Below, in pieces: positions 10,871 through 29,170 of a stretch of 29,170 nt of DNA (position 1 is its first letter; each line of letters opens with the position of its first letter). The stretch spans positions 137,429 to 166,598 of the IMG/VR virus record IMGVR_UViG_3300031787_000010. The stretch is one strand, 5' to 3'. Made by a program: the position numbers and the translations under genes. This DNA is from a virus. Lineage: Duplodnaviria > Heunggongvirae > Uroviricota > Caudoviricetes. The notes beneath the pieces were generated by a model. That model saw only the letters and a list, made by a program, of their open reading frames with translations, did not search any database and had not been told where the DNA came from.

Positions 10871-10897
10871 CTGCTGATATTAATAAATATCAGTCAG
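10871..10897. promoter_or_regulatory. Inverted repeat CTGATATT-aata-AATATCAG overlapping the helicase stop and an ATATTTAT motif
   Basis: Perfect 8-bp arms at 10874-10881 and 10886-10893, extendable by 3 bp with one bulge. Function unknown. Confidence 0.35.
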
Positions 10898-12773: not shown

Positions 12774-13003
12774 TAAGCCTCAACCTCTAGTATTTCTTCT
12801 GGAGTTGTTGCACGAACATATACCATTCGTTCCATGTCCAATTGCCAACCCTCCTCTGGATCTAATTTTAATATTTGCATCATTTGTTCATTAGCAAGTT
12901 TAATCTGTTGCATTAATTGTGATTGATATTTTTTTAACGCTTCGTTATTATTTAATATCAATTGCGCTAATGCGATAGGAACGTCCATCGTTACTTCTTT
13001 CAT
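12773..13003 (-). CDS. Hypothetical protein
   Basis: 76-aa ORF; its stop overlaps the helicase start (TAATG), and its start abuts the upstream stop. Confidence 0.7.
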   Translation of the reverse strand: MKEVTMDVPIALAQLILNNNEALKKYQSQLMQQIKLANEQMMQILKLDPEEGWQLDMERMVYVRATTPEEILEVEA

Positions 13004-14074: not shown

Positions 14075-14095
14075 AGTAACCTCTTTATTTTAAGT

Positions 14096-14716
14096 TTATT
14101 TTAAATCATCTATTTTGATTAATATCATAGATCGATATGGTTCAGACGTATCTTCATCAATACAATATATAGGGTTTAAATAAAATGGATTTATTTCCAT
14201 ATTAATTTGTCTAAAATCAGAGTCTAAAATATCTTTATTTTCTATAAGATTCCTTCTACTACTGGTTAGCAAGTATGTACTTCCACTATTTTTTATGTTC
14301 TCTAGGGACTTTTTTATATTCTCATAAGAAAGATGTATAAAACAATCTCGCACTATAACTAAATCCTTTTTAGGTAAAGGATCTTCTGTAATATCTAAAT
14401 GTAGAAATTCATGCTGTGGATAATTTAGTCTGTTGTCATTGACGAATACTTCGGCAATGTCCGCTCCGACGTATTCGATTCCCGTCAAATTGACTTCTTT
14501 CATCCAATGAAAGTCACCACACGGTATGTCTAGAATTGATTTGATATTAAATGTATCAAATAATTTTGGCAATGCATTTCTTAAAGGTTTTGTAGATTCT
14601 AATGTACTACCACCACCACTTCGAGTTTCTATGCATCCCCACCCATTTGCCGTTGGATTCATAGCATGTACAGCGTGTATTATAATCTCAAATTCGTGTT
14701 TAAGTTTTTCGTTCAT
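14096..14716 (-). CDS. Class I SAM-dependent methyltransferase
   Basis: W...ETRSGGGST, SILDIPCGDFHWM (motif I), YVGADI, DLVIVRDCFIHL. Start moved from 14767 to ATG 14716, which forms an ATGA overlap with the upstream stop. Confidence 0.85.
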   Translation of the reverse strand: MNEKLKHEFEIIIHAVHAMNPTANGWGCIETRSGGGSTLESTKPLRNALPKLFDTFNIKSILDIPCGDFHWMKEVNLTGIEYVGADIAEVFVNDNRLNYPQHEFLHLDITEDPLPKKDLVIVRDCFIHLSYENIKKSLENIKNSGSTYLLTSSRRNLIENKDILDSDFRQINMEINPFYLNPIYCIDEDTSEPYRSMILIKIDDLK

Positions 14717-15243
14717 GCAAAACTCCAATGCATGAATAGTTGAACAACATGCTGGTGTGGTTCGCAAATTAAATCATCACGCCAATGTGTCATTGTTGTT
14801 CCTAACATCATACCACCATCACCTCGACCAATATTCAAAGGAACTTGATTATTTGTCTTATCAATACACCACAATGGCCATTCCTTATCTAAACTATTAA
14901 ATAGCGTAATAGACATAGTGTAATCAAGACCTTGACGATCAACGTGTTTGTGTAAAGTTCCACCATTATAATAAATGCGTCCAAACGAATTAGCGGGAGT
15001 CATTTTAACTCCCAACTCGTCTTGCAATCTGTCTGTTAATGATCGCAATGCGGCCTCAAACTCTGGATGGTTTCCACCATACGAATTATCATAAAACTTT
15101 TGGTCACCACCTTCATAAACTAAACGATCTGTAGCTTTCATGTCATACATCAACTGAGCAAAGTCGTCGCACTGCTGGTGTGTCAGTACGTCTTTAATGT
15201 ATGCATACCCATGTCGAGCAAAAAATTCTGATTGGTTGTTCAT
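14713..15243 (-). CDS. 2-oxoglutarate/Fe(II)-dependent oxygenase-like protein
   Basis: 176 aa; GYAYIKDVL N-terminus, RIYYNGGTLHKHVDR (HxD), THWR (distal His), QLFMHW. Double-stranded beta-helix oxygenase family common in phages; substrate unknown. Confidence 0.75.
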   Translation of the reverse strand: MNNQSEFFARHGYAYIKDVLTHQQCDDFAQLMYDMKATDRLVYEGGDQKFYDNSYGGNHPEFEAALRSLTDRLQDELGVKMTPANSFGRIYYNGGTLHKHVDRQGLDYTMSITLFNSLDKEWPLWCIDKTNNQVPLNIGRGDGGMMLGTTMTHWRDDLICEPHQHVVQLFMHWSFA

Positions 15244-16796
15244 AACTGTGATCCTCTGTTTTTTTGTATAATATAATCTTCCAATATAACGGCGTCCATC
15301 TCTTTACTATCTAGAACTGTGAGTGCTTCTTTATACGTATTCAAAATTGGTTTTCCTGCCACATTGAACGAAGTATTTAATAATACACCTATTCCAGTTT
15401 TATTATGCATTTCTGTTAATAAATTATATAAAAATTCATTTTGTTTTTTAGTTACAGTTTGTACTCTCGCTGTACCATCCACGTGCACTATTGCTTCTAG
15501 TTTATTTTTATATTCATCTTTTACTCTTGGACAAAAACTCATCCAACGGCTTTCAGTATTCCATTCAAAATATTTGTTAACATCTTCTAGACGGACCACG
15601 GGAGCGAAGGGACGATAATATTCTCTACCTTTTACTTTAGCATTCAATATATCTTTTATTCCAGTAATAGCAGGATTACACAATATACTTCTATTTCCTA
15701 GTGCTCTTGGACCATGTTCACATCTATCTCGTACCACACCTACAATTTTACCAGATATAATATAGTCTGCTAATTTAGCGATGTCAAGTACTTGTGCCGA
15801 TCGTTCGTGTGCAATTCTTATTAATTCATGTCTATCCCATACTACGGGCCCAGCATATGTACAATCAATTGGTTCTGTTGGTTTGATAGTAGATGCTAAT
15901 AATCCAACCGCCAACCCACAATCATTTGGATTAGGTGGAACAAATACGTTTCTAGTTCTAGCAAGTTTGGTATTATTTAATATATTAAGCCCACACCCAC
16001 CAACTAAAATTAAGGGTAATGAAGGGTATTCCTTTAAAAATGGCGTTATCTCTTCTTCAAAAAGTTGCTCAAAGACAAATTGATTTGAAGCAGCTAAATC
16101 TTTAGCGTCTTGGCCAGTGAATCTAAATTCCTCTGGAATGTCAAGAACCTTCCTTATTGTAGTCACCGTTTCCGGTATTTTCCCATCATCCCCGCTATTA
16201 TATATAGTATGTAATTTATTGACGAATTCTTCCGTGGCGTTTCCGTAGTTTGCAAACCCCATAATTTTTCCGGCGTACACCAAGTTTCCCCAAAACGGTT
16301 CTTCCTTTCGTATATCTTCAATATAATGTGCAACCAATCCATATGGAACAGCTAAATCTCTTTTACCAGAATATATTTTTGTAATACCCGCGCGCTTATC
16401 ACCTATAAACACATTGAAAAATCCTTCATCTGAACCACCATCAGCTGATACTATTAACGCATTACTATATGGGGATTGGTATAATCCAGAGTATGCGTGA
16501 GCTGTGTGGTGTGGTAACCATGTGTATTTTTTAGCGGGAAATATTTTATAGTATTCTTGGTGCACGGAATTATATATTACGCTTTCATATTCCGTTACTC
16601 CATATTTTTGATTAAAGTAGTTTTTTATTTCGTGAATCACTGCTATATTATATGGCTCTCTTATGTTATAGTAAAACCATAATGCGCAATTTTTTATTGA
16701 AGTAAATCTTTCTACTTCCACTACTTCTAAAAGTTTGTCATCTTTTGATATAGCTATTGTTGCATTATGAGAACCAAACATTCCTATATTAAACAT
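15240..16796 (-). CDS. O-carbamoyltransferase (NodU/CmcH/TobZ family), copy 1
   Basis: HHTAHA, DGG, GKIMG, GGCGLN, EHGPRALGNRSIL, RPFAP, HVDGTARVQTV, LLNTSFN. Start moved to ATG 16796 (MFNIGMFGSHNA), which aligns with the N-terminus of the paralog. Confidence 0.92.
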   Translation of the reverse strand: MFNIGMFGSHNATIAISKDDKLLEVVEVERFTSIKNCALWFYYNIREPYNIAVIHEIKNYFNQKYGVTEYESVIYNSVHQEYYKIFPAKKYTWLPHHTAHAYSGLYQSPYSNALIVSADGGSDEGFFNVFIGDKRAGITKIYSGKRDLAVPYGLVAHYIEDIRKEEPFWGNLVYAGKIMGFANYGNATEEFVNKLHTIYNSGDDGKIPETVTTIRKVLDIPEEFRFTGQDAKDLAASNQFVFEQLFEEEITPFLKEYPSLPLILVGGCGLNILNNTKLARTRNVFVPPNPNDCGLAVGLLASTIKPTEPIDCTYAGPVVWDRHELIRIAHERSAQVLDIAKLADYIISGKIVGVVRDRCEHGPRALGNRSILCNPAITGIKDILNAKVKGREYYRPFAPVVRLEDVNKYFEWNTESRWMSFCPRVKDEYKNKLEAIVHVDGTARVQTVTKKQNEFLYNLLTEMHNKTGIGVLLNTSFNVAGKPILNTYKEALTVLDSKEMDAVILEDYIIQKNRGSQL

Positions 16797-17571
16797 ATTT
16801 TCGTAAAACCTTATTGTGAAATTGTATGTACTCTTCCGTACTACTGATTCTAAATCTATACGCAAAATACTTTTCATTTGCTATTATGTCATCGACGTAA
16901 TCTACTAACGGGCCACCGTTATCGCCTAAACTTGTAGCGGATGTTTTTACATCTTGATGTACTTCGTCCCAGACGGCATAATTTAATTTATTAAATAGTA
17001 TTACTCCCACACCAAGATCTTCCATAGATAACGGATACGGTAAAGATAAATATTCTTCTTTATTGTTTACTAATTGTTGTACACAATCTTTTGATAGATA
17101 ATTAAAACTTCCTCCGCAAAAATAATACTCATTGTTGTACATATTTCGTGCACCATCATATTGTTTATCTTTTCTTTCCAGTGAATCTAGAAATTTGTGC
17201 ATCTTTTTAATATCAAGGTAAGTCGTATTACAAATTCGAACTATATAATCAAATTCTAAATTATTAAGACACCACTCATATGCTATGATAAGTTTTTGAT
17301 TACGTGGATCTGTAAGAGGATTGCTTACTACATCTTGTACCCCACACACAAGAATATTATTACCGTGGTTATCATACATAATCGCAGAACCCTTGGCGGG
17401 CGTTCCACTTAAATGTGAATACGGTTTATCTTCTAAATCATAACCTCCGTAATAATGAATAACTGTTACGTCTGGGTGTTTTACTCTTGCCCATGTACTT
17501 TTTGCTAACGCATCTATTGCATTATATTCAAAATGCCACGTTGATTGGTTTAGTACTATAATTTTAGTCAT
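16789..17571 (-). CDS. GT31 (beta-1,3-galactosyltransferase/Fringe)-like glycosyltransferase, divergent
   Basis: KLIIAYEWCLNNLEFDYIVRICNTTY...YDG...FCGGSFNYLSKDCVQQL...EDLGVG follows the GT31 layout (K..a..w....dy, G.g..lS, EDv.G). The DxD position reads CNT. Confidence 0.5.
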   Translation of the reverse strand: MTKIIVLNQSTWHFEYNAIDALAKSTWARVKHPDVTVIHYYGGYDLEDKPYSHLSGTPAKGSAIMYDNHGNNILVCGVQDVVSNPLTDPRNQKLIIAYEWCLNNLEFDYIVRICNTTYLDIKKMHKFLDSLERKDKQYDGARNMYNNEYYFCGGSFNYLSKDCVQQLVNNKEEYLSLPYPLSMEDLGVGVILFNKLNYAVWDEVHQDVKTSATSLGDNGGPLVDYVDDIIANEKYFAYRFRISSTEEYIQFHNKVLRKYV

Positions 17572-17572
17572 A

Positions 17573-19132
17573 TTAATCCTTTTTTATATAATAATTTTCC
17601 AAAATCAACCCATCCATTTCCACATTTTCTAGCATCCAGACAGCATCTCTGTATGTATTCAGAATTGGTTTTCCTGCGATATTGAAGGATGTATTTATTA
17701 ATACACCGACTCCTGAAAGTCGTTTTACTTCACCTAATAGGTGATACAGAAAAGAATTTTGCATTTCTGTTACTGTTTGCAATCTAGCCGTGTTATCGAT
17801 ATGTGTGACAGATGGTAAAATTGATCGGTATTCCGTTTTTACTCTTGGGCTAAATGTCATCCAACGTGCTTCACCTTCCCAATCAAAATAAGTATTTGCA
17901 TCTTCCAATCTAGTTACGGGTGCAAACGGACGATAATATTCTCTATGTTTGACTTTTGCATTTAGTATATCTTTCATACCTACAGTTGGCATGCAAAGAA
18001 TACTTCTGTTTCCCAATGCCCTAGCCCCGTGTTCAGAACGACCACGAACAATTCCAATAATTTTTCCAGAAATTAAATCTTCTGCTAATTTTGTGAAATC
18101 TACTTCGGTTGCATTATATTTGTTTACGTACTCATGTAATAAATGTCTATCCCAAACTTCAGGTCCGATATAAGTGGAATCAAATGCATCCGATGGCTTT
18201 AAAAACCCTAACATAAATCCTAAACTCAATCCTCTATCGTCTGGATTTGGCGTTACATGCGTCTTTGTTAATTTATTTACTTGTGTGTTATTCAGTACAT
18301 TTAAAGCACATCCACCAGTTAAACATAATTTGTCATCACTACCTATGATATCTTTGTATGATAACTTTTCAAACAATTGCTCAAACGCATATTGAGAAGT
18401 TCTGACTACATCCACTTCTAACTGGCCAGTTAACTCATCTGGATAACCTAATTTTTTATAATTGTTATACTTGTCCTCGTAAGTAGAATGATGTCCTTTG
18501 TAGTATTCTAAAAAATTATTTATGTTATTGTGTAAAATTTTACCGTATGCTGACAATCCCATCAACTTACCCGAATGTACCAGATATCCTTGAAATCTAT
18601 CTTGTTTGCTCAATGAACTACAATAAAATCCAATTTGTGCATATTTTTCTCCGATATTATAATCAGGTTCCGTTCTATATAATGTGACTCCATTCTGTCT
18701 AGTTGCTTTATAAAAATTAAAACACCCATCATTACCACCACCATCAAAACTAATAATTGTTGCTTCTTTTAAATTAGTTTGATAAAATGCATTATACGCG
18801 TGTCCTTCTTGGTGACCCATCTCTATTAAATTTTTTGCGTTAAAAATATCTAAAACACTTCCGTGTGCAGACCAATATCCACCCGTGAGTACTTCCAAAT
18901 CTGTAGGGTTACATATTAGATTTTGGTATTTGTCTGCACCATATTTTATTTTGAAGTATAGAAGTATTTCTTTTACAGCATGTATAGGATTATGAGTGGT
19001 AGGTAGATACCACGTTAAACTTATATTTTTAACGTTTAGCCATCTTTCCAATTCCACAACTTCTAGAATTTCATCATCTCGACTTATCGTAAATGACGCA
19101 TTGTGTCCTGTGTATATTGATAAATTAAACAT
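17573..19132 (-). CDS. O-carbamoyltransferase (NodU/CmcH/TobZ family), copy 2
   Basis: 519 aa; HQEGHA, FDGGG, GKLMGLSAYG, LTGGCALN, EHGARALGNRSIL, RPFAP, HIDNTARLQTV, LINTSFN. Confidence 0.92.
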   Translation of the reverse strand: MFNLSIYTGHNASFTISRDDEILEVVELERWLNVKNISLTWYLPTTHNPIHAVKEILLYFKIKYGADKYQNLICNPTDLEVLTGGYWSAHGSVLDIFNAKNLIEMGHQEGHAYNAFYQTNLKEATIISFDGGGNDGCFNFYKATRQNGVTLYRTEPDYNIGEKYAQIGFYCSSLSKQDRFQGYLVHSGKLMGLSAYGKILHNNINNFLEYYKGHHSTYEDKYNNYKKLGYPDELTGQLEVDVVRTSQYAFEQLFEKLSYKDIIGSDDKLCLTGGCALNVLNNTQVNKLTKTHVTPNPDDRGLSLGFMLGFLKPSDAFDSTYIGPEVWDRHLLHEYVNKYNATEVDFTKLAEDLISGKIIGIVRGRSEHGARALGNRSILCMPTVGMKDILNAKVKHREYYRPFAPVTRLEDANTYFDWEGEARWMTFSPRVKTEYRSILPSVTHIDNTARLQTVTEMQNSFLYHLLGEVKRLSGVGVLINTSFNIAGKPILNTYRDAVWMLENVEMDGLILENYYIKKD

Positions 19133-19144
19133 AACCGTTTTATG

Positions 19145-20068
19145 TTACAGAGTCTTAATTTGTTTATTTTTGAAATCTATTCCTGAAAATTGCTCGTACT
19201 CATCTAGAGTTCGATGTGTACCCAGACCGTATTTACCCAGATCACCACCTTCAAATAACCTTCGAAGTCGTTCCATCGCAACTTTATGTCTATACTGTCC
19301 AAATTCCGGTGGTAGTACGGTAAAGTGTTTTTTGTTTGGTTCGTTATGTGCTCTATGCCACGATACTATTCTATCGGGCGTGTATATATCATATCCTTTT
19401 GTATACGATCTTACGGCTAAAGCAAATTCTTCACCAGTATAATAATGTAATGGATCTTGTTCCACTTCAACTACCCATTGGCCGTCTGAAAATATAAACC
19501 CACCATATAGTACGGGGACTCTTACATTTTTATATCCAGTACGCTGTTCATTTTCATATCCACCGTATTCAATCCAGTATTGACTAGTTATATTTTTTAT
19601 TTTAGGTATTTGTATTTTATCCATATCAAATATATTACTAAACAAATAGTCTATACCATATTCGTCATTTCTAGAGTATGATGGAGATAAATATGAAATT
19701 ATAGGTTTTGGTGATATGTTTCTTAAATTTTCTATATTTCGTATTAACACGGAGTCCCAATGTTTTATAACCCGAGTGTGTGAATCTATTTGTAATGCAT
19801 ATCTTTCATTTGCATAATATTTCTGTGCTATATTTCTTGCCCAACAACCACCTCTTGATTCTGTCCAATGGTGCAATTCTAAATGTATTGGATACTTGCC
19901 GAGTAAATGATTGATGCAGTTTTCATTCGTCTCTGGCTCTTCATCAAATTGGTGCACTACAGAAAATACTAATCTTTGAGGATTTTCGGCTTTACTAATT
20001 AGGTCTAGTATGGTATGTGGTAGTTCATAATCACGAAAACTTGCAATTGCTATAAAGATTTTTTCCAT
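19145..20068 (-). CDS. GT60-like polypeptide alpha-GlcNAc transferase (Skp1-Hyp Gnt1 / trypanosomatid mucin OGNT family)
   Basis: IFIAIASFRD.EL..TI, S+G.CWAR, LQIDSH.R....WD, GGFIFS, YYTGEE, RSYTKGYDIY.P...WH are the hallmarks of the GlcNAc transferase (PF11397-type) family. Confidence 0.82.
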   Translation of the reverse strand: MEKIFIAIASFRDYELPHTILDLISKAENPQRLVFSVVHQFDEEPETNENCINHLLGKYPIHLELHHWTESRGGCWARNIAQKYYANERYALQIDSHTRVIKHWDSVLIRNIENLRNISPKPIISYLSPSYSRNDEYGIDYLFSNIFDMDKIQIPKIKNITSQYWIEYGGYENEQRTGYKNVRVPVLYGGFIFSDGQWVVEVEQDPLHYYTGEEFALAVRSYTKGYDIYTPDRIVSWHRAHNEPNKKHFTVLPPEFGQYRHKVAMERLRRLFEGGDLGKYGLGTHRTLDEYEQFSGIDFKNKQIKTL

Positions 20069-20070
20069 TT

Positions 20071-22842
20071 TTAGATCCGTCTAAATTTAATTGACAAGTA
20101 ATCCTCCAATTCTTCTAATGAACGAGAATATGAATTGGAAGTATTAAAAAGTATATCATTTATAATTTCAACAGACTTGTCTGTTATTTCATTATGATTT
20201 GTTTTTCTGTATACGGTGCCGTCCAAGTCATGTATATTATAATTATGCCATACTGTCGCCTCAGCGGGTAATTTTATATCCCATCCTTTTAAATAAGATA
20301 AGAACGTTTGTGCTTCTTCTTCACCTTTAGATTTTATTTGCATAGGTACTTGTATATCTCCAGTCCATTCGATTGGTGCAAATATAAATCCTGCACCTAT
20401 CCATTTGTTGTCGAATATTTCGTACTTATCCATTGCTACTAAATTTTTTGTAACTAATCTGTTATCTATTGGATTAACATTTTCAACATCCATATGTCCA
20501 CTAATAACTAATGGGGCATTAGTTTTTATAGATAAAAAGTTTTTTTCCGTATCGGTAAGTTCGAATCCATTTGGATATGTAGAGAATACCACTTTTTTGT
20601 TTGGCATACTTCTATATTGATTTATTAGTATACCATCCCAATTTTGTTTAAATCTACTGTGTGCGTCAATCTGCAAAAAGAAATCCTCATCAGTTATTAA
20701 TTCTTGCTTTATTCTTTCACGCGCCCAAACAACTCCCAGAGAATCTTCATCTGGAGTAAATAATATTTTCATGTTTGGAAAATTTTCATTAAGTAATTCT
20801 TTATGATATTCTTCGTTATCTTGAAGATGGACACCTACCATAATTCGTGATGAGTCTTGTGCCGTTTCATATAAATTTCTTAATGTAGTTAATAACTGGC
20901 GGTCGCAATAGCTAGCTACAGAAACAAATATTTTTTTAGGTTTAAAATCCCAGGCGTCTTTAAATTCTCGTGCCCAATTACCTATGAATCTTTTTGTTTC
21001 AGTAGAATCACATTGCTCATCTTGATTAAACGTACTAGTATTGATATAAAAGTTTTTATCTTCTATATCTTTCATATATCCTCGAAGTCTGTATATATAC
21101 GAGGAAAGAGTGGAATAATCGTTACCTATAAACTTTATAGATCTTGTACATATGAGTTGTTCTATTATCGGAATAAAATTATAGTGCACATTTTCTAGTT
21201 TTGCTAAATGTGCAATATCTTCGTAATAGTGTAACTGATAGTGTTGGGCAAGTTTGTCAAAAAATGATTTATCGGTATGGTCTGTTGCAATATACAATGT
21301 GGAACCATCTGGTATTATATCTTTGATATTATCATAGATTTGCTCCGCTGTAATGAACAAATGCTTATACTGAAAATCATTTCTTCTTATGTGGATTGCA
21401 TAGTATTTTCTGTCTCCCAACACTTCTATTGCCCGCCAACCCAATTCCATTAATTTAGGAGTGTAATGAACGTGCCGTGCTATTAATTTTTTAAGTTCTA
21501 CGTCAAATGTCGTATATATGGTTTGATAAAAATTTCCTAACAATTTACCATCAAAAAATAAACACTCATTGTGACCAAGTAGTTCAATCATATCAGTTAC
21601 AGAACGTCCATGTTTAAATGATTCGTCTGGTAGTGATTCTGTAAAATTTAAAACGTGAAATTCTGGTTCTGTTATGGTTTTACTAATTTCTGCAACTGCT
21701 TCGAACGTAGGAGTAATATTTTTCAGTCTACAGAAATCAAAAAAAGACATTGTTTTTATTCCTAAATCAGACATATCAAAAAAATCTTCTAGCCCAAACG
21801 TATCTTTTAGCAAATACATATTATACTTTGGAGGTAGTACTAATGTCTTATTCGTTAAATATGCTATACAAACCGCCAGTTCTAATGACATTCGTATGTT
21901 GTTAAATCCACCCGGCCACGGTTTTAAAATAATATATCCGGTTTTACCAGTGTAATTGTTAAATATATTAGAAAAATTCCATTTTAAATGGTACAGATAA
22001 TCCGTTCTTTCTTGTGCAATATTAGATAACAAAAGTTCATCTAATTTGTTTCTTGCTCTATTTACGTCTATTTGCATATTCTGATTGTGTGTGTAATCTT
22101 GTTTGAAAAATAAAGAATTATTATTCGCATCAAATATTTCATTCGGGAAATGTGCGATAAGACTGACTTCATTACTGTCATTTTCTTTCCATGCCGTACA
22201 GAATCCAAAGTCCTCTACGTATTGAATTTTTAAATTGTTCTTTTTAACTGCGTAATCCAATCCCCACATTTCAGATTCCCATCGTTTCGTTTCACGTTTA
22301 ATTTGCTCTGAACTGGTAATATAATCGTCTATTATTTTTTTTAATGTACCAAACTTAATACAAAATGGATACATCACACCAAACCCGTCTCTATCATTTT
22401 CAATTTTCCAATTCTGTAACGGTGCGTAGTGAATAAATCTTTGTGCTATAATTTCGTTATATTTAGGAACAAATTCTACTGGATGTAAAAATATCATATC
22501 TGGGTCTAGAAATAATAAATTATCTTCGTCTTTAAAAGAAGAGTTATCGCATAACCATTTTATCGACATGAATTTATTTGGTATAGCTCCCCACCAATAT
22601 TTTTCACCACGTTTTGATTCTGATTCTAGATTTTCCCATTCTGTAGCATAATCTGGTAAATCTATTACTACTACATCCGTGTCTGTGTATTCATCCAACG
22701 GTCTATTTCTACCCATCGGATCTGCACATCGTAATAACACAAGTTTACCTGATTGCTTTACTTTCTTCCGTGACCAGTTTAATAAACGACACTGCCACGA
22801 TTGATACTCACTATTACTAGTTGGTACTATGATATAATCCAT
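20071..22842 (-). CDS. Three-domain glycosyltransferase: GT96 (peptidyl-Ser alpha-galactosyltransferase, SGT1)/GT95-like + GDP-fucose O-fucosyltransferase-like + GT60-like
   Basis: aa ~1-230: YQSWQ..L.WS.KK.KQSGKL..L.CAD, NK..SIKWL, LFLDPDMIF, WESEMWG. aa ~300-590: GGFNNIR...E.A..IA.L..KTLVLPP, YAIHIRRNDF, LYIATD, IEQLIC...FIG...STLSSYI.RLR. aa ~636-923: IFVSVASYCD, SLGVVWAR, LQIDAHSRF..NWD, GAGFIF, GEE, WH. Confidence 0.78.
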   Translation of the reverse strand: MDYIIVPTSNSEYQSWQCRLLNWSRKKVKQSGKLVLLRCADPMGRNRPLDEYTDTDVVVIDLPDYATEWENLESESKRGEKYWWGAIPNKFMSIKWLCDNSSFKDEDNLLFLDPDMIFLHPVEFVPKYNEIIAQRFIHYAPLQNWKIENDRDGFGVMYPFCIKFGTLKKIIDDYITSSEQIKRETKRWESEMWGLDYAVKKNNLKIQYVEDFGFCTAWKENDSNEVSLIAHFPNEIFDANNNSLFFKQDYTHNQNMQIDVNRARNKLDELLLSNIAQERTDYLYHLKWNFSNIFNNYTGKTGYIILKPWPGGFNNIRMSLELAVCIAYLTNKTLVLPPKYNMYLLKDTFGLEDFFDMSDLGIKTMSFFDFCRLKNITPTFEAVAEISKTITEPEFHVLNFTESLPDESFKHGRSVTDMIELLGHNECLFFDGKLLGNFYQTIYTTFDVELKKLIARHVHYTPKLMELGWRAIEVLGDRKYYAIHIRRNDFQYKHLFITAEQIYDNIKDIIPDGSTLYIATDHTDKSFFDKLAQHYQLHYYEDIAHLAKLENVHYNFIPIIEQLICTRSIKFIGNDYSTLSSYIYRLRGYMKDIEDKNFYINTSTFNQDEQCDSTETKRFIGNWAREFKDAWDFKPKKIFVSVASYCDRQLLTTLRNLYETAQDSSRIMVGVHLQDNEEYHKELLNENFPNMKILFTPDEDSLGVVWARERIKQELITDEDFFLQIDAHSRFKQNWDGILINQYRSMPNKKVVFSTYPNGFELTDTEKNFLSIKTNAPLVISGHMDVENVNPIDNRLVTKNLVAMDKYEIFDNKWIGAGFIFAPIEWTGDIQVPMQIKSKGEEEAQTFLSYLKGWDIKLPAEATVWHNYNIHDLDGTVYRKTNHNEITDKSVEIINDILFNTSNSYSRSLEELEDYLSIKFRRI

Positions 22843-23788
22843 ATTGTTCCCGTATCCAGTTAAATGTACGAGTCATTCCTTCTTCTAATGTAATAGCAGG
22901 TTCCCAATTTAACAATGCCTTTACTTTGTCATTATGTGAGTTTCTTCCACGTACTCCCAACGGTCCTTCAATATGTTTACGTTGGAGTTTGACACCAGCT
23001 GCATTTTCAATAATCGTAATTAATTCATTAACGGACACCATTCGGTCTGATCCAATATTAAATGCCGATTGATGTGGACTATCCATTACACGAATTGTTC
23101 CTTCGACTGCATCATCAATATACAAAAACGACCGTGTTTGCTCACCATCACCCCACACTTCAATCGTATCAGAGTTAGTGTGTAAAGCATGTGCGACTTT
23201 TCTACAGAGCGCGGCCGGTGCTTTTTCTCGTCCACCTTGCCACGTACCTACTGGACCGTAGACATTGTGGTATCGGACAATACGGGTTTCAATTCCAAAA
23301 TCTTCGGTGAAATGACGACACATGCGTTCCATAAACAGCTTTTCCCAACCATACCCATCTTCGGGATCGGCTGGGTATTCTGTACCTTCAATTAAAGGTT
23401 CTGGTTCTGTCGTGTTTTGTTTATACACAGGATAGACACAAGCGGTCGATGCGAAGAGAAACTTCTTTGCTCCGTTTAGGTGTGCTGCTTTTAATGTATT
23501 GGTGTCTGGAATAATGGATAACATACACAATGTCTTATTGTGTTCGATAAATCCCATTCCACCCATATCACACGCTAAATGATAGACTTCATCAATACCT
23601 TGCGTGGCGTTTAGAGCAACATCGTAATCCGTTAAGTCTCCGACGATGTTTTCTGCTGACTCGGTAATTTGATACCATTTATCAAACGGCTTTTTATCAA
23701 TTGCTCGTACTGTATATATTTCTGCTAATTTCTTTACTATATGTCCGGCAATAAACCCACCGGCTCCCGTAACCAATATTGTTTTCAT
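22817..23788 (-). CDS. GDP-D-mannose 3,5-epimerase (extended SDR)
   Basis: GAGGFIA, LACDMGGMGFI, YGWEK (YxxxK), GTWQGGREKAPAALCRK, WGDGEQTRSFLYIDD, GVRGRNS are characteristic of GME. Start at ATG 23788 is preferred because the AGAGG SD lies 8 nt upstream. Confidence 0.88.
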   Translation of the reverse strand: MKTILVTGAGGFIAGHIVKKLAEIYTVRAIDKKPFDKWYQITESAENIVGDLTDYDVALNATQGIDEVYHLACDMGGMGFIEHNKTLCMLSIIPDTNTLKAAHLNGAKKFLFASTACVYPVYKQNTTEPEPLIEGTEYPADPEDGYGWEKLFMERMCRHFTEDFGIETRIVRYHNVYGPVGTWQGGREKAPAALCRKVAHALHTNSDTIEVWGDGEQTRSFLYIDDAVEGTIRVMDSPHQSAFNIGSDRMVSVNELITIIENAAGVKLQRKHIEGPLGVRGRNSHNDKVKALLNWEPAITLEEGMTRTFNWIREQYGLYHSTN

Positions 23789-23882
23789 AACCATTTCCTC
23801 TTAATTATTTTTCAGTATTACAATTTAGTATATTCGTACTGTACTATAATACATATTTACGTTTTTACCTCACCAATTGATT

Positions 23883-25949
23883 TTACTCACACGAACTGTT
23901 CGATCCGCCGCAATCAATATAATTTGTACACGATAATACATATTCTGTACCATTACAAGTGTACAAATCTTGGCCCACACATTGAGTAGCTCCAAAAGTA
24001 CATGTTGCTGGTGATGGTGTTGGTGAAGGTGTTTCTGGTGAAGGTGTTACCGGTGAAGGTGTTACCGGTGAAGGCGTTGGTGCTACGGGTGGGCATGGTG
24101 TATTTTGACATTGCCCAGCACAGCAATATGCACACGGTGAACAATCTTGAGCATCAACACATGGTATTGTAGGACATTGTATTTCAGGCGAAGGCGTCAC
24201 TGGCGAAGGTGTTTCCGGCGAAGGCGTCACTGGCGAAGGTGTTACTGGTGAAGGCGTCACTGGCGAAGGTGTTACTGGTGAAGGCGTCACTGGCGAAGGT
24301 GTTACTGGTGAAGGCGTCACTGGCGAAGGTGTTACTGGTGAAGGCGTCACTGGCGAAGGTGTTACTGGTGAAGGCGTCACTGGCGAAGGTGTTACTGGTG
24401 AAGGCGTCACTGGTGAAGGCGTCACCGGCGAAGGCGTCACCGGTGAAGGCGTCACCGGCGAAGGTGTTACTGGTGAAGGCGTTACGGGCGCAGGCGTTTT
24501 TGTTGCAGACGGCGTAATACTTGGAGTAGTAGTAATACTTGGCGTAATAGATGGTGTAATAGAAGGCGTTCTAGTAATACTTGGTGTTCTAGTAATAGAC
24601 GGCGTAGTGGTAATACTTGGAGTAATACTTGGTGTTCTAGTAATAGACGGCGTAGTGGTAATACTTGGAGTAATACTTGGTGTTCTAGTAATAGAAGGCG
24701 TAGCGGTAATACTTGGCGTTCTAGTAATAGAAGGTGTAGTGGTAATAGACGGCGTTGTCGTAATACTTGGCGTAATACTTGGCGTAGTTGTTATTGATGG
24801 AGTTACTGTAGTACTTGGTGTTTTAGTAATTGAAGGGGTAGCAGTGACACTCGGTGTTACTGATGGCGTTACTACTCCTTGTGTACACGGCCAACACGTT
24901 CCGAGAGTAAGTGCTTCAGCAACTGCTGTACATCCACCACCAGTAGGATCTGGATAATTATTACAGCTTGGAACTGTAGTACACTCACAAAATACATAAT
25001 TAATTGTGGTAGCAGAAGGTGTTACCGATGGAGTTGGTGTATTAGTTGGTGTCGTAGTTACCGATGGGGTTGTTGTTATTGAGGGCGTTACCGTTGGGGT
25101 AACAGTTCTAGTAGTTGTTATCGACGGCGTTATTGATGGAGTTGCTGTTATTGATGGAGTTGCTGTTATTGATGGTGTAGTTGTTATAGAAGGTGTAAGA
25201 GTAGGCGTTGGTGTTACAGATTGATTTGTTGTTTGTGTTATTGATGGAGTTACTGTTCTAGTTGGAGTTATAGACGGTGTTGTGGTAATAGATGGTGTTG
25301 TGGTAATAGATGGTGTTCGTGTTAAACTTGGTGTAACAGTTATTGACGGTGTAATTGAAGGTGTAGATGTTATAGTTGGAGTAACCGTTATTGACGGTGT
25401 TGTTGTGATAGAAGGTGTTACTGTCACAGACGGTGTAATAGATGGTGTTCTAGTAATACTAGGCGTAGTAGTAACAGAAGGTGTGGTCGTAATAGACGGC
25501 GTAGTTGTGATACTCGGTGTTCTAGTGATAGAAGGCGTTCTGGTAACTGATGGTGTAGTTGTTATAGAAGGTGTTACAGTTACACTTGGGGTAACCGACG
25601 GCGTAGTTGTTACTGACGGTGTTACTGTCATCGTCGGGGTAGCTGTCGGTGTTTTTGTTGGGGTTATGGATGGAGAGGGAATTGGATAACATAAAAAATA
25701 ATTTTCTCTACCAGAATGCGGCGGTACTGATGGGTATGTGTCATAGGCATCCGTGACCGTAGTTAACGCATTATAATAACCAGGCGGACAACTTGTAGCT
25801 TGAATTCCAGGAGTACCTTTTGGTCCTATAACACCAACCAACGCACGTGCTGCTACAACAGATGGATTGTTTACTAATGCGTAAGCAGAACTAGCTGTTT
25901 GTGCGAAGGAACCCGTAGAAGGAATACCGAATGGAAAAAATACAGCCAC
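23883..25949 (-). CDS. Mucin/extensin-like Thr-Pro-Ser repeat protein with Cys-rich modules; probable virion surface or fibre protein
   Basis: 688 aa; GTG start with AGGAG SD 6 nt upstream. Two long blocks of TPS(I/V)T(T/R/A/V) hexapeptides, 20 tandem (V/E)TPSP pentapeptides, and three Cys-rich modules. The virion role is inferred. Confidence 0.8.
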   Translation of the reverse strand: MAVFFPFGIPSTGSFAQTASSAYALVNNPSVVAARALVGVIGPKGTPGIQATSCPPGYYNALTTVTDAYDTYPSVPPHSGRENYFLCYPIPSPSITPTKTPTATPTMTVTPSVTTTPSVTPSVTVTPSITTTPSVTRTPSITRTPSITTTPSITTTPSVTTTPSITRTPSITPSVTVTPSITTTPSITVTPTITSTPSITPSITVTPSLTRTPSITTTPSITTTPSITPTRTVTPSITQTTNQSVTPTPTLTPSITTTPSITATPSITATPSITPSITTTRTVTPTVTPSITTTPSVTTTPTNTPTPSVTPSATTINYVFCECTTVPSCNNYPDPTGGGCTAVAEALTLGTCWPCTQGVVTPSVTPSVTATPSITKTPSTTVTPSITTTPSITPSITTTPSITTTPSITRTPSITATPSITRTPSITPSITTTPSITRTPSITPSITTTPSITRTPSITRTPSITPSITPSITTTPSITPSATKTPAPVTPSPVTPSPVTPSPVTPSPVTPSPVTPSPVTPSPVTPSPVTPSPVTPSPVTPSPVTPSPVTPSPVTPSPVTPSPVTPSPVTPSPVTPSPETPSPVTPSPEIQCPTIPCVDAQDCSPCAYCCAGQCQNTPCPPVAPTPSPVTPSPVTPSPETPSPTPSPATCTFGATQCVGQDLYTCNGTEYVLSCTNYIDCGGSNSSCE
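24187..24486. repeat. 20 x 15-bp tandem repeat encoding (V/E)TPSP, containing 6 perfect 30-bp copies (24221-24400)
   Basis: The unit aaggcgtcactggcgaaggtgttactggtg occurs exactly at 24221, 24251, 24281, 24311, 24341 and 24371; flanking units differ at wobble positions. Confidence 0.95.
24574..24695. repeat. Perfect 48-bp tandem duplication (about 2.5 copies) within the hexapeptide repeat region
   Basis: gtaatacttggtgttctagtaatagacggcgtagtggtaatacttgga at 24574 and 24622, with a partial copy at 24670. Confidence 0.9.
25010..25680. repeat. Degenerate ~18-bp coding repeats (TPSITT/TPSVTV/TPSITR)
   Basis: The protein-level hexapeptide repeat has diverged synonymous positions; a second block lies at about 24500-24875. 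Confidence 0.9.
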
Positions 25950-25962
25950 AAAATTCTCCTAA

Positions 25963-26157
25963 TTATGTTGGAACAACAATTAACGTTGGTGAAGCATCTA
26001 CTTCTTTATACGGGTCACCAGGCAAACCTAGTAAATTTTCAGCGTAAGCGGCAAGTGCCGCGGTGGTAGGTGTATTTGCCGATGCAATAGTTACACTTGC
26101 CGAAACTGCGAAAGAAGTACTAATTGGTAATCCTAATGGTATAAATTGTATACTCAT
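25963..26157 (-). CDS. Small hypothetical protein, probably virion-associated
   Basis: 64 aa; FIPLGLPISTSFAVSAS motif shared with both neighbours; tight packing. Confidence 0.7.
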   Translation of the reverse strand: MSIQFIPLGLPISTSFAVSASVTIASANTPTTAALAAYAENLLGLPGDPYKEVDASPTLIVVPT

Positions 26158-26166
26158 ATGCCGACT

Positions 26167-26415
26167 CTAGTTAAAATTGCAAACTTCTTTTAACGAAGGA
26201 TTTGCTCTTAACTGTAAATACTGTTCATAGGTTATTTTACAAATTCCAGGAACTCCAAGATCGCCTTTTGATCCAGAAGTACCCGACTCTGCGAAAGAAG
26301 CTGTAAATACGTACATCAAGTATTGTGCATTATTTGCGTAAGACGAAGATAAGGCAAATGATGAGGTGTATAAACTTCCAGAAGCGTATGGATAAAAAGC
26401 TGAGCTAGTAGTCAT
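26167..26415 (-). CDS. Small hypothetical protein, probably virion-associated, with a short Gly-X-Y stretch
   Basis: 82 aa; FYPYASGSLYTSSFALSSSYA...TASFA...GSKGDLGVPG. Confidence 0.7.
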   Translation of the reverse strand: MTTSSAFYPYASGSLYTSSFALSSSYANNAQYLMYVFTASFAESGTSGSKGDLGVPGICKITYEQYLQLRANPSLKEVCNFN

Positions 26416-26418
26416 AGT

Positions 26419-27306
26419 TTAATCTTCTAGTGAAAATACATGTAAGTTTACAGTTGGAGTTATAGGAGAACCCGAAGATGATACGTTCTGCATATAATAA
26501 TAAACAGAATTTATTCCTTCCATTTTTGTTGGATCTGTGATTAATTCCGATAAGTCGTTTCCCATATTTTGTAAATTAGCTCCTATGATTTTAGGAGTAA
26601 AATAAACTATATTACTTCCAGAGATAACAGTATCTATTATTAATCCAATTGATTCCGATGGTTCAGTTGCAAATAATCTATTTCTTTCACTAACATTATA
26701 TATACTACCGCTATTATTATACATTCTAAATCTAACCATGTGGCTAGAGTTTGCTAATGAAGCACTTACCATTATATAAGTTTTTGGTACAGTTGGTGAC
26801 GTAATACTGGTAAATGTACCACTTGCATACGCTAACGCCGCAATAGTCGAAGAAGGTGTTATTTGTATTAATCTACGATTATTTTCTGTGTACGATGTAT
26901 TAATCGCAGGAGTTATAGATGTATCTTCTATTAAAAGCCTATTAATTTTAAAGGAGGAACCCGAAGGCGTGCATCTATAATACGTTAATGGTGTAGTTGC
27001 CGAATTCGTATGTCCTATTGACGCTGGGTTTATCGTATATACTGTATTACTTAAACTCATACTGTAGTCACCGACAAGTGCTACGGTTGGTGGTACGGTT
27101 GAACCAAATATACGGGAAATTTCAGTAGAATCGTCTCTACTCTGAATTGTGTCATAGATTCGTAATCTAGCAGGTTGTGTAGATTCTATACTTAATATAA
27201 GAAAAGAACCCCCAAGGGCAACCGAACCACTACCGACCGTATCGGTAACTGTAATAACGTCTCTGGTAATTTTTGCCCCGGCTTGGACCTGTTCTTTTAA
27301 TCCCAT
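26419..27306 (-). CDS. Hypothetical beta-rich protein with an internal duplication, probably virion-associated
   Basis: 295 aa, Ser/Thr/Ile-rich; two copies of an R(L/F)R(I/M)Y...E.(S/N)R.F...P motif. Confidence 0.7.
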   Translation of the reverse strand: MGLKEQVQAGAKITRDVITVTDTVGSGSVALGGSFLILSIESTQPARLRIYDTIQSRDDSTEISRIFGSTVPPTVALVGDYSMSLSNTVYTINPASIGHTNSATTPLTYYRCTPSGSSFKINRLLIEDTSITPAINTSYTENNRRLIQITPSSTIAALAYASGTFTSITSPTVPKTYIMVSASLANSSHMVRFRMYNNSGSIYNVSERNRLFATEPSESIGLIIDTVISGSNIVYFTPKIIGANLQNMGNDLSELITDPTKMEGINSVYYYMQNVSSSGSPITPTVNLHVFSLED

Positions 27307-27362
27307 AAATCCACGTTGTTAAAGATACACTAGTATAAATATAAAACTATATGTCTTTTACA

Positions 27363-29170
27363 TTAGGATTCCTTCCTCAATTCACTCTGATAAAAATTAA
27401 ATCTATTGTGTTCTATAGGTGACGCAAGGAAAATTCCACTAGTTAATTCGTTTTTTCTGGTTTGTTGGAATATATGACTCATCCATGTTTGTTCGTATGG
27501 TCTAGCCCACTTTGTGTTTAAAAACATTTTTTGATTACCTTCTTTACTGACTATTTGTGGCCAATTACTGTAATAAATCTGCCCTTTAATATAAGGAGTT
27601 TCATCCACAATGTGAATTGTATCAAAAACAGTTTTTGGAGCATTTGGATCAGTTCCGTGTTCAGGTAACTTATTATAGTTAGGCCAAACTTCATTTCTAA
27701 CTGATTGTGGTACATTATACCAAGCCCACTGCACACTATTATCACCGTAAAATTCGGAAAAAGACATTTTAAAGAAATCAAATTTTTCTTTTACCATAAT
27801 TTTAACGAGCTTTTCATATAAGTTTGGTATATGTGATCTAAATCCATTTCTACAGTTCTTACCAATAAAAGACTCGTTGTTAATATGCATATCGTCTTCA
27901 AAAAACATATAAAAATCAGCGTCGGATTCGCTAAAATGTTCTGCTATAAATTGTCTACCACCACATACACCTAAATTCTCTCTATGAATTTCCTCGAACC
28001 CATACAGTTCACATAACTTATCGTATTGTTCAAATAAACTAGTATCCGTAGAGTTATTTACTAATATTTTTCTACATCGTGTAAACATAGTGTCATCAGC
28101 CGATTGTATGGACTTCACGACAGATTCAAATTGTTCTGTAGAATTAAATCCAAGAACATACAGATTTACTTTAGCAGTTTTTGGTGTTAGTTCTTTCGGC
28201 GGTAAATTTTTTATAAGTTCGTCTACGTCCTTTAATTTTTCAAAAAACGGCCATACCAAACCGTCGCCTGAAAGTTCAAATCTATATATTGTTTCTGGAT
28301 ATAGATGTGCCATTACAGCAAATATACTTTCTTCCGTACCCATAAAATTACTTTCTAGGGTTTGTCGTAAAAGATTATAATAATTACTATTTGCCGTTGC
28401 TATTGAAGTTTTGGAACCACCAAAAAATCCACCACGACACACATATTTTAAATGTTGTGTTTTGGCATATCTTTCAATATCAGTACGTGGAAAGCCATGA
28501 ACTTCATATCCATCCTCATACGGATATGATAAGAATATAAACGCATCAACTTCTTCGGTTAATTTTGGTAGATTTTCTAAAACGACATCGTGATGAAAAT
28601 ATCCTGGATGTACTGTCGTGGAGATGCCTGCATCTAACCAATAAAAATAATTTGTATTAAATGGATTACTGATTGATGCATCGTTCAGTAAAAACATCTT
28701 GCTCATAACTACCGGATTATAAAACTCTAAATTTGCTTGTGGAGAGTTTTCTAACCATGCTGCCTGTTTCTTCCAATTTTCAGTATTTCTAATTTCTTGT
28801 ACTTTTTCGTAGAAGGGAAACCAAGTTTTTAGTTCTTCTAACTCCATAACTTTGACATGAGTATTTTTTCTTGATCTATGCTTCCAAACAAATTCTTCAT
28901 CTTCTTTTGCTACATAAATGTATAAATTTGAAGGAGTTTTGAGTAACTCTGCAAATTTGTCAAGATAATAAGAATACGGACGTTTAAAATCATCACCGAG
29001 TGACCCTCTACCTAAATTCCAAAGAGCGGTTACTATGGTCGTATCAGAATTTTCTAAAGTTTTGAATTCTTCAACAGTATTGTCTACTTGTTGTGAAGAT
29101 TCTTGCTCAGTTTTAGGAATCTCGTCTATCGTGAATCGTAAAACTTTATCTCCGAGATTTATAACGAAAG
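27363..29170 (-). CDS. HtrL/YibB (WlaTC)-family glycosyltransferase fused to a C-terminal GT-A-like domain; 5' truncated
   Basis: The frame stays open from 28847 to the window end (…DTTIVTALWNLGRGSLGDDFKRPYSYYLDKFAELLK…). HtrL motifs: SKMFLLNDAS..NPFNT.YFYWLDAGI, RGGFFGGSK, MGTEESIF. The second domain has NLGVCGGRQ...DFYMFFEDD. Confidence 0.8.
   Translation of the reverse strand, partial: FVINLGDKVLRFTIDEIPKTEQESSQQVDNTVEEFKTLENSDTTIVTALWNLGRGSLGDDFKRPYSYYLDKFAELLKTPSNLYIYVAKEDEEFVWKHRSRKNTHVKVMELEELKTWFPFYEKVQEIRNTENWKKQAAWLENSPQANLEFYNPVVMSKMFLLNDASISNPFNTNYFYWLDAGISTTVHPGYFHHDVVLENLPKLTEEVDAFIFLSYPYEDGYEVHGFPRTDIERYAKTQHLKYVCRGGFFGGSKTSIATANSNYYNLLRQTLESNFMGTEESIFAVMAHLYPETIYRFELSGDGLVWPFFEKLKDVDELIKNLPPKELTPKTAKVNLYVLGFNSTEQFESVVKSIQSADDTMFTRCRKILVNNSTDTSLFEQYDKLCELYGFEEIHRENLGVCGGRQFIAEHFSESDADFYMFFEDDMHINNESFIGKNCRNGFRSHIPNLYEKLVKIMVKEKFDFFKMSFSEFYGDNSVQWAWYNVPQSVRNEVWPNYNKLPEHGTDPNAPKTVFDTIHIVDETPYIKGQIYYSNWPQIVSKEGNQKMFLNTKWARPYEQTWMSHIFQQTRKNELTSGIFLASPIEHNRFNFYQSELRKES

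Follow-up and report, generated by a model that had tools for sequence, protein, structure and literature searches.

A modular mucin-like protein with repeat stalks and cysteine-rich knots, a candidate virion fibre of an uncultured freshwater phage

A stretch of 29,170 nucleotides from an uncultured tailed phage (IMG/VR record IMGVR_UViG_3300031787_000010, positions 137,429 to 166,598), referred to here as the window, was analysed. It forms the final 29 kb of a record of 166.6 kb, whose completeness is 89%. The subject of the analysis is an open reading frame (ORF) on the minus strand, 23883 to 25949, which encodes a protein of 688 residues (P0001) with Pro/Thr/Ser repeat stalks alternating with Cys-rich knots. 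The reading towards which we lean, by a modest degree, is that the protein is a virion fibre or adhesin 'whisker' of a freshwater myophage, and that its stalk is probably O-glycosylated. The gene is real and selected, the family of modular proteins to which it belongs is real, and its synteny with transferase genes and with baseplate and tail genes is conserved. Virion location, docking partners, disulfides, and glycosylation with its role are what we infer.

In the proposed arrangement, residues 1-91 would attach the protein to the virion in concert with three proteins encoded just upstream, of 295, 82 and 64 residues. About 525 Pro/Thr/Ser repeat residues would act as an extended spacer without a regular fold, and at 0.25-0.31 nm per residue each of the two long blocks, when stretched, might reach about 55-70 nm. 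The stalk would be interrupted and capped by modules with 6, 8 and 6 Cys. Once in oxic water they could become disulfide-bonded, knottin-like knobs, which would be the distal contact units. Thr and Ser of the stalk would be O-glycosylated in the host cytoplasm by the adjacent soluble phage transferases, and the sugar would add stiffness and protease protection.

Coding evidence and layout of the 688-residue protein

The ORF begins with a GTG codon (25949-25947) and ends with a stop codon at 23883-23885. By direct sequence reading, a ribosome-binding site, AGGAG, lies 6 nt upstream of the GTG (25956 to 25960, minus strand). This GTG is the earliest start codon possible past the upstream stop, and it is confirmed as the start by homologues that begin at the same residue. 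Thr (27%), Pro (20%) and Ser (14%) together account for 61% of the protein, and windows rich in these residues cover 525 of the 688 positions. Two of the 22 Cys are in the N-terminal domain and the rest are in clusters of 6, 8 and 6.

Repeat arrays in the ORF are detected by Tandem Repeats Finder, with a top score of 469 for a 15/30-nt array. Such a region could be an artefact, mis-assembled or non-coding and open by chance. The breaking of other assemblies inside the arrays would fit this explanation, as would ORFs of 102-135 residues on the opposite strand (24209-25689, plus strand). However, the 21 VTPSP units are spelled in 9 ways at the nucleotide level, varying at third codon positions only. 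Among the 39 TPSIT units there are 30 versions, with Ser codons from both TCN and AGT, and the codon usage of the ORF is that of the adjacent genes. Almost all the differences between repeat copies are synonymous, so selection acts on the peptide. Homologues have the N-terminal domain and the knots in common, the locus is present in 16 DNA runs from 2017-2025, and two further assemblies agree with the gene over much of its length. The frame is not open by chance and the repeats are not recent slippage; an artefact can be given almost no credence.

The first 1606 nt of the gene are 100% identical in the two other IMG/VR assemblies. This identity spans stalk 1, knot 1 and stalk 2a, described below, and both assemblies then stop inside the VTPSP array. 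The assemblies of two relatives (L058 and L055) likewise break off within repeats. A contig from a 2025 DNA run also covers the 5′ end but, with a length of 2191 nt, ends within or beside them. The layout is independently confirmed as far as stalk 2, and as the other assemblies end in repeats, the VTPSP copy number (20) rests on a single contig.

The architecture listed for 23883-25949 in the original prediction, which was made from the DNA letters, was found with every part in its place. The modular layout proposed there, repeat stalks alternating with Cys-rich knots, is correct. All the parts lie on the minus strand. The N-terminal domain (residues 1-91; 25677 to 25949) carries the motif FFPFGIPSTxSFA...GPKGTPG...CPPGY...YFLCYPIP, in which GPKGTPG is residues 42-48. 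It is the putative anchor and defines the family in phmmer, alignment and hhalign comparisons; its two Cys, C54 and C87, are invariant. Stalk 1 (about residues 92-317; 24999 to 25676) is composed of hexa- and pentapeptides of the TPS[I/V]T[T/R] type and contains 92 Thr, 34 Ser and 41 Pro. It is followed by Cys module 1 (residues 318-358; 24876 to 24998), with 6 Cys at a spacing of 1-5-10-11-2 (CxC...GGC.AVA...GTCxPC). Stalk 2a (residues 359-486; 24492 to 24875) is a second TPSIT[T/R] block. Stalk 2b (residues 487-588; 24186 to 24491) is (VTPSP)x20 with one unit reading ETPSP, its copy number being uncertain. Cys module 2 (residues 589-622; 24084 to 24185) has 8 Cys at a spacing of 4-5-2-2-0-3-4. 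After a short TPSP block, stalk 3 (residues 623-647; 24009 to 24083), the protein ends in Cys module 3 (residues 648-688; 23886 to 24008), with 6 Cys spaced 6-7-8-5-6. With narrower limits the three modules cover residues 321-355, 592-619 and 650-687, and the TPSP block residues 620-648.

A search for homologues of the non-repeat parts, which the original prediction had proposed, was productive for both kinds of part. The N-domain family was found, ten proteins of which carry the domain N-terminally, and the knots matched a protein termed P0012 and a paralogue from the same genome. Cys module 1 is homologous to a P0012 module (BLASTP, 53% identity over 30 residues, pairwise E 4e-6), and Cys module 3 to the terminal knot of the paralogue (G000:2303-4348; BLASTP, 44% identity, E 5e-14). 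A central CC is present in module 2 and absent from modules 1 and 3. The CCxGxC core of module 2 is common to knots on contigs L007, L008 and L053.

About 30 compact Cys modules flanked by Pro/Thr (PT) sequence occur across the family, and their Cys numbers are all even, from 4 to 12. Disulfide pairs fit these even numbers better than metal sites. No Pfam match to Cys modules 1-3 or to the N-domain was obtained even at E values up to 10, and the whole protein had none in Pfam or PHROGs. Sequence searches of the PDB with the Cys modules, and with profiles of the N-domain and of the 295-residue neighbour, had no useful outcome. In the ESM Atlas there was no usable match for the terminal knot, and for the N-domain the scores were 0.79 or lower, to small viral hypothetical proteins, which are a lead only. 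The C-x4-S-C stretch of module 1 was considered as an EGF O-fucose consensus and dropped, as relatives do not keep it.

Neither a signal peptide nor a transmembrane segment was found in the 688-residue protein, judged by the lack of a basic n-region and of a hydrophobic segment (maximum KD19 1.35) and with no dedicated predictor run; there is also no lipobox. This is consistent with modification and assembly in the cytoplasm.

A promoter and terminator scan of 22700-29170 gave no more sites than shuffled sequence and no transcription-unit boundaries. In three RNA-library runs, short contigs lie on the 295-, 82- and 64-residue genes, and one such contig (25905-26106) extends into the first 45 nt of the 688-residue ORF; their depth is about 3, and they may be DNA carry-over.

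The N-domain family and its conserved gene block

The N-domain family was collected by phmmer, with residues 1-95 as the query and a database of 1.84 billion representative proteins. Twelve matches were obtained. In ten of these, with lengths of 87-1900 residues (E 1e-14 to 2e-4), the domain is N-terminal in the matched protein itself, and additional members are present on contigs L055, L058, L059 and L060. The family is known only from uncultured viral or metagenomic DNA. Alignment A4 of the domain has 15 invariant columns, C54 and C87 among them. Its signature of about 90 residues (FxPFGIPSxxS.A, GPxGxxG, CPxGY, Y.LC[YF]P) is carried by the 688-residue protein. A word-indexed protein search with residues 1-100 and 586-688 gave no match among candidates, which were limited to proteins of 378-1204 residues. 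Megablast of the locus and tblastn of the 688- and 295-residue proteins gave none in 50,697 phage records, a set from which near-identical records may be missing.

Each full-length member consists of the N-domain, a PT-rich linker and variable distal modules. The distal part is made of compact Cys knots in P0005, P0006, P0008, P0009 and the L059 member, and is beta-rich and globular in P0003 and P0004. The L060 member has a Gly-rich domain, knots and an ASPPASPE array. In P0012 and P0013 about ten Ig-like repeats, with a weak Invasin_D3 match, lead to a Cys-rich tip; P0012 also carries TPSIT-type repeats. The repeat units themselves vary among relatives (TPTPTPS, ASPPASPE, PPTVPPTV, PTTAP and others), and only the Pro/Thr/Ser composition is constant. 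The two repeat types had been taken, in the original prediction, as a sign of two acceptor classes. The sequence comparison lends no support to this or to any specific acceptor motif, and the turnover of repeats weakens it.

A conserved N-terminus joined to exchangeable distal parts is the usual build of phage fibres and receptor-binding proteins. The N-domain proteins have this build, and their genes lie within or beside a baseplate and tail module. After the fibre gene, relatives have a gene of about 75 residues, an SNF2 helicase, a T4-type baseplate hub, a gene of about 122 residues and the tape measure. The counterparts in the window are found, in this order, at 12773-13003, 10890-12773, 10061-10840, 9518-9892 and 5588-9514.

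A product that does not belong to the virion would explain the protein differently. It might be mucin-like, made during infection and either released or kept with the cell, where it could carry glycans, serve as a decoy or as a matrix altering the surface of the infected cell or trapping competitors, or act as a scaffold needed for assembly alone. The N-domain by itself does not fold in prediction, and the paralogue, of 681 residues, is encoded among replication genes, both of which accord with this alternative. On the other hand, with no signal peptide, transmembrane segment or lipobox, such a product would have no exit route before lysis. The conserved N-terminus with swappable Ig-like, knot or Gly-rich modules follows the pattern of fibres and receptor-binding proteins. 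The relatives' gene stands directly before the helicase, baseplate-hub and tape-measure genes, and two other PT/Cys genes of the genome come after baseplate-wedge genes. We therefore consider a non-virion product unlikely.

The virion fibre that we favour would share its attachment with the products of the genes upstream. Wherever the flanking DNA suffices, the gene order is an HtrL_YibB-like gene (about 600 residues), genes of about 290, about 80 and about 60-155 residues, and the N-domain protein. The 688-residue gene is the last of this block, and the same position is taken by the N-domain gene in L052, L053, L054, L055, L058, L059 and L060. In the window, the block and its HtrL_YibB-like neighbour are on the minus strand. 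The first gene (26419 to 27306) encodes the 295-residue protein, a candidate docking partner in which two jelly-roll beta-sandwiches are predicted. It is followed by an 82-residue protein (26167 to 26415) with a conserved C-terminal ICxIT...EVCNF and by a 64-residue protein (25963 to 26157), both with the N-terminal motif. A putative transferase of HtrL_YibB type (27363 to 29168) lies directly upstream of the block, as it does wherever upstream DNA is present. The first 45 or so residues of the N-domain are common to both small proteins (hhalign E 6e-7 and 3.4e-7). Orthologues of the 64-residue protein sometimes have a PT stalk of their own, with or without a knot; in L053 and L060 this stalk is of the TPSI type. 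The L053 orthologue (L053:9491-9955, plus strand; 155 residues) consists of the N-motif, a (TPSI[ST]I)n stalk and a six-Cys knot, C-x6-C-x5-CC-x3-C-x5-C. This knot passes the cut-off of Pfam Toxin_29, an inhibitor cystine knot family of spider toxins, at 25.3 bits against 25. The match is probably a likeness in Cys pattern, not a sign of a toxin.

The motif common to three adjacent genes could also be a leader-like element, recruiting tailoring enzymes to the 82-, 64- and 688-residue proteins as substrates. The many tailoring enzymes around the block (transferases, carbamoyltransferases, a methyltransferase) would suit such a role, as would the PT stalks, with or without a knot, that 64-residue family members bear in L053 and L060. 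Yet the 681-residue paralogue has the same repeats without the motif. Moreover, the Ser/Thr/Ala-rich region runs on into a Cys-paired domain, and the 90 conserved residues are longer than typical leaders. The weak score obtained for a complex of the block proteins, described next, depended on a protein of structural type, falling to 0.00 when this was replaced. A leader-like role is distinctly improbable.

Docking as proposed in the fibre reading was modelled as a four-chain complex of the 295-, 82- and 64-residue proteins with the N-domain. The predicted complex scored 0.59, the best of three controls 0.00, and the score was lost once the 295-residue chain was replaced. Contact agreement between runs was at least 33% and partner pLDDT at least 49. 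In the calibration, 58 of 80 solved complexes attained the mark, as did 2 of 110 mismatched pairs; scores of 0.60 or lower included only 7 of the 80 solved complexes, yet both passing mismatches. The prediction gives a slight hint that the N-domain may need its neighbours. The 295-residue protein has 63 homologues, all unnamed, and its AlphaFold2 (AF2) model is of pLDDT 89 and pTM 0.84. The best viral fold matches of this model are uncharacterised and 'tail fibre-like' cyanophage proteins, with one domain only (TMq 0.33-0.39).

A homologue of the 295-residue protein with 31% identity (P0073) is encoded on L056 and L057. There, a 925-residue protein lies upstream, and unnamed genes and a radical SAM enzyme follow, then the SNF2 helicase. 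Neither recognisable transferases nor small N-motif genes are among the genes called on these two contigs.

The glycosylation island and the state of the stalk

Downstream of the 688-residue gene lies a glycosylation island of 10.8 kb (13004 to 23794, minus strand). It encodes an epimerase, a triple fusion of HPAT, O-FucT and GT60 domains, a further GT60 protein, two carbamoyltransferases, a methyltransferase and a DUF6065 protein. PF11397/GT60 and PF10250, the protein O-FucT family, are among the Pfam matches of these neighbours. The match of the triple transferase, of 923 residues, to PF23452 (HPAT) is weak, 27.6 bits against a cut-off of 23.9 (E 2.4e-6). The PF11397/GT60 family includes polypeptide alpha-GlcNAc transferases that act on Thr of Trypanosoma cruzi mucins, and the GT60 enzymes of T. 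cruzi are homologous to Gnt2 of Dictyostelium (PMC3769586).

The ORF at 12773-13003 (minus strand; 76 residues) is the orthologue of the gene of about 75 residues that lies directly 3′ of the fibre gene in relatives. The segment 13004-23794 is thus an island inserted exactly between the fibre gene and this 76-residue gene. In relatives the transferase genes are on the opposite side, upstream of the HtrL-like gene. Their islands include GT60 pairs, GT10, GT_PLOD, epimerases and carbamoyltransferases, and adjoin the block in each relative with enough flank, with position and content varying. The functional link between the 688-residue protein and the adjacent transferases, proposed in the original prediction, gained indirect support. 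Seven further metagenome contigs pair a family member with transferase genes; among them an HtrL-like gene is called in six and a wider glycosyltransferase (GT) island is present in four.

Further support for the link comes from a different phage type (L007/L009 and L008), in which an analogous PT/knot protein lies directly upstream of an orthologous epimerase and O-FucT. The proteins, of 582 and 487 residues, have PT repeats (PPTVPPTV, PTTAP, TDPPATDPPS) alternating with four knots of 6 or 8 Cys. Their knots have the CCxGxC core and the CxC...CxxC type in common with the window modules. In L007 and L008 the gene has on one side a tail-fibre gene encoding an S74 chaperone domain and on the other the epimerase, after which come O-FucT, more transferases and a carbamoyltransferase. 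The epimerase of the window (22817-23794, minus strand) is 76-82% identical to those at L007:9037-9996 and L008:6001-6969, and the O-FucT domains beside it are only about 36% identical between the window and the L007/L008 type. The epimerase being far more alike than O-FucT, a recent exchange of the epimerase or of a cassette between phage lineages is suggested.

The same gene order could be found around a virion fibre with a bare, flexible PT linker. The island would then have its target elsewhere, be it the capsid or tail tube, one of the small N-motif proteins, the DNA of the phage or glycans on the host surface. PT linkers without known sugar are common in bacterial and phage multidomain proteins. 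Among relatives the repeat units change freely and conserve no acceptor motif, and the content of the island differs from one relative to another (GT60 pairs, GT10, GT_PLOD, the triple fusion). The 681-residue paralogue, with the same stalk, is far from the island on its contig. These observations suit a bare linker. Several others do not. Transferase genes flank the block on one of its two sides in relatives with enough flank, the island here sits precisely where the fibre gene would otherwise meet the next conserved gene, and in the second phage type a PT/knot protein is the immediate neighbour of the orthologous epimerase and O-FucT. In addition, the characterised members of GT60 and O-FucT are protein O-glycosyltransferases (PMC3769586; Pfam names). 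A bare linker is rather doubtful as the explanation.

A number of points weigh against the glycosylated virion fibre as well. Virion location and modification are deduced from gene order. All the contigs carrying the N-domain family come from one clade, so that their shared synteny is not independent evidence. The island could have a different target, for instance the capsid, one of the small N-motif proteins, DNA or glycans of the host. When modelled by itself in AF2 with an 11-sequence alignment, the N-domain failed to fold (pLDDT 47). A complex that passes at the score found here would more often be wrong than right unless it was likely beforehand. The PDB fold matches of the 295-residue model are generic jelly rolls only (Foldseek TMq below 0.3; VIA Z of 6.4 or less). 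In the bacterial cytoplasm disulfides normally do not form, and no Erv1/ALR-type sulfhydryl oxidase was found in the phage's own 89%-complete genome. With neither this oxidase nor a signal peptide or transmembrane segment, oxidation of the knots would have to follow lysis. Metal binding is possible for the modules that contain CxxC. Finally, the paralogue has the same stalk without the anchor domain and lies among replication genes, and the stalk is thus not tied to the N-domain anchor.

This paralogue is one of three more PT/Cys proteins in the phage's own genome, all encoded on the minus strand outside the 688-residue locus. It lies outside the window at G000:C1:2303-4348 (L061:2303-4348) and has about 590 residues of TPSIT[T/R] and VTPSP repeats, an 8-Cys module and a terminal 6-Cys knot. 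Its N-terminus is of 22 residues only, and its gene adjoins those of an 874-residue unknown protein, an SbcCD-like nuclease and a primase. The other two genes are just downstream of baseplate-wedge genes. The first (G000:C1:20247-21401; L062:5245-6399) encodes 384 residues with VTPSP/ITPSP repeats and an InlB B-repeat (Flg_new_2) domain. The second (G000:C1:21405-22328; L062:6403-7311) encodes 302 residues with PAPTP linkers, three small knots and a weak late-nodulin match.

The DUF6065 protein of the island (13004-14074, minus strand) had been proposed to be a 2-oxoglutarate (2OG)-Fe(II) oxygenase. Pfam and PDB sequence searches gave no link to oxygenases. The C-terminal 100 or so residues of this protein are rich in Lys, Glu and Gln and have a coiled-coil-like look.

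Comparison with known glycoproteins and fibres

The 688-residue protein is mucin-like and resembles glycosylated adhesins, and it lies outside the mucin, extensin, collagen-like and serine-rich-repeat families. The known classes to which it would belong are phage fibres and phage-encoded virion glycosylation. The N-domain fibre family and its four-gene block are undescribed so far; a full-text literature search for PT/Cys-knot fibre proteins of phages found no description in the papers it covered.

Phage-encoded O-glycosylation of virions is described in mycobacteriophages (Freeman et al. 2023, as summarised in PMC12619734). In that summary, as here, phage transferase genes lie beside structural genes, and the mycobacteriophages' own virion proteins are modified in the host. 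The modified parts it describes are short C-terminal extensions of capsid and tail-tube subunits, shown experimentally, whereas here the candidate acceptor is a 525-residue stalk on a separate fibre, known from genes. The enzyme families also differ, those of the window being GT60-, O-FucT-, HPAT- and HtrL-like.

Mucin-type glycoproteins of protists, such as T. cruzi mucins, have glycans started by GT60 polypeptide alpha-GlcNAc transferases (PMC3769586). They resemble the phage protein in that Thr/Pro-rich repeats alternate with Cys-rich modules, and PF11397/GT60-type genes are close by. The spore-coat proteins of Dictyostelium are built in this way, with mucin-like repeats alternating with Cys-rich modules. 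However, the protist proteins are secretory and their enzymes are bound to Golgi membranes, whereas the phage protein has no signal peptide and the phage enzymes are apparently soluble. There is no sequence homology between the two in repeats or knots.

The original prediction had likened the protein to eukaryotic mucins and to algal hydroxyproline-rich glycoproteins (HRGPs). In animal gel-forming mucins, as in the phage protein, Pro/Thr/Ser tandem repeats make up most of the protein, the Cys-rich interruptions are small, and the repeat sequence evolves fast with its composition kept. True membership among eukaryotic mucins does not hold, as there is no signal peptide or transmembrane segment and VWD, CysD and CK domains are absent. 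Pfam searches, run for the Cys modules at E values up to 10, found none of the VWD, CysD, CK and SEA domains of animal mucins, and Pfam scans of the neighbours turned up no GT27 GalNAc transferases. The likeness to animal mucins is convergent. With extensins and HRGPs the protein shares the idea of a rod plus knobs, and the neighbouring triple transferase has the weak HPAT match. The comparison breaks down on defining features, as the 688-residue protein has no Ser-Pro3-5 (0 SPPP, 0 PPP and 0 SPP) and no YxY. A prolyl 4-hydroxylase (P4H)-type 2OG oxygenase was not found in the 89%-complete phage genome (no PF13640 match), though an enzyme of the host might serve.

Streptococcal serine-rich repeat (SRR) proteins and Bacillus BclA are of similar build. 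Their N-terminal part serves for targeting or anchoring, the long stalk is of low complexity and, in their case, O-glycosylated, and a binding domain is distal. The streptococcal proteins are glycosylated in the cytoplasm. Their repeats are (Ser-x)n or, in BclA, collagen GxT, in contrast to TPSIT and VTPSP in the phage protein. The enzymes are GtfA/B of GT4 or a rhamnose/anthrose pathway, and the export and anchoring systems found there are absent here. A collagen-like, BclA-type fibre was tried as a class and rejected, as a long (Gly-X-Y)n array is lacking and only two triplets, in GPKGTPG, are present.

Knottins (Toxin_29, conotoxin O-superfamily) share the C-C-CC-C-C pattern with CCxGxC core of one knot class (L053, L007). 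In contrast, the modules of the window match no Pfam family or PDB sequence and module 2 has 8 Cys; the likeness may be in Cys pattern alone.

A wider proposal is possible and is put forward tentatively. A clade of freshwater myophages would make true mucin-like glycoprotein fibres in the bacterial cytoplasm, where soluble transferases of eukaryotic type (GT60 polypeptide alpha-GlcNAc transferase-like, O-FucT-like and HPAT/SGT-like) would densely O-glycosylate the Pro/Thr/Ser stalk and possibly the knots. Three paralogous N-motif chains docked on the double jelly-roll would form a new hetero-oligomeric anchor, and the exchangeable knottin-like tips would oxidise outside and adhere. To our knowledge, the documented cases of virion glycosylation in phages are limited to short tails that capsid and tail-tube proteins of mycobacteriophages bear. 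If the glycosylated fibre is real, a mucin-like stalk made for the purpose, with a sugar island of several enzymes to itself, would be a different solution and one on a far larger scale. It would also offer a model, in the bacterial cytoplasm, of mucin-type O-glycosylation by families known mainly from protists, plants and animals. The N-domain joined with three partner gene products would be a new fibre anchor, and the tiny disulfide-knot modules on natural stalks would be a library for adhesion biology and protein engineering.

The phage that carries the gene is tailed, encoding tape-measure and baseplate-wedge proteins and a T4-type baseplate hub. Judged by the baseplate wedge, the cultured phages closest to it are Mel-JY01 of Microcystis (41% identity) and immuto of Flavobacterium (38%). 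The 16 DNA runs mentioned above are from freshwater or lakes and contain nearly all the sampled words of the locus, most of them being flagged as possible assembly sources. The phage appears widespread and persistent in lakes, and such fibres may therefore influence phage-host encounters in water.

PT-repeat loci are probably mis-called by gene callers, and short-read assemblers break there (L003, L055, L058). Owing to such breaks, and to apparent opposite-strand calls in at least one relative, PT/knot proteins are under-counted in metagenome catalogues. On a 216-kb JGI/NCBI contig bearing P0044, two minus-strand genes, of 189 and 105 residues, are called at the expected site of the fibre gene. 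L055, the sister of this contig, has an N-domain gene at that same site.

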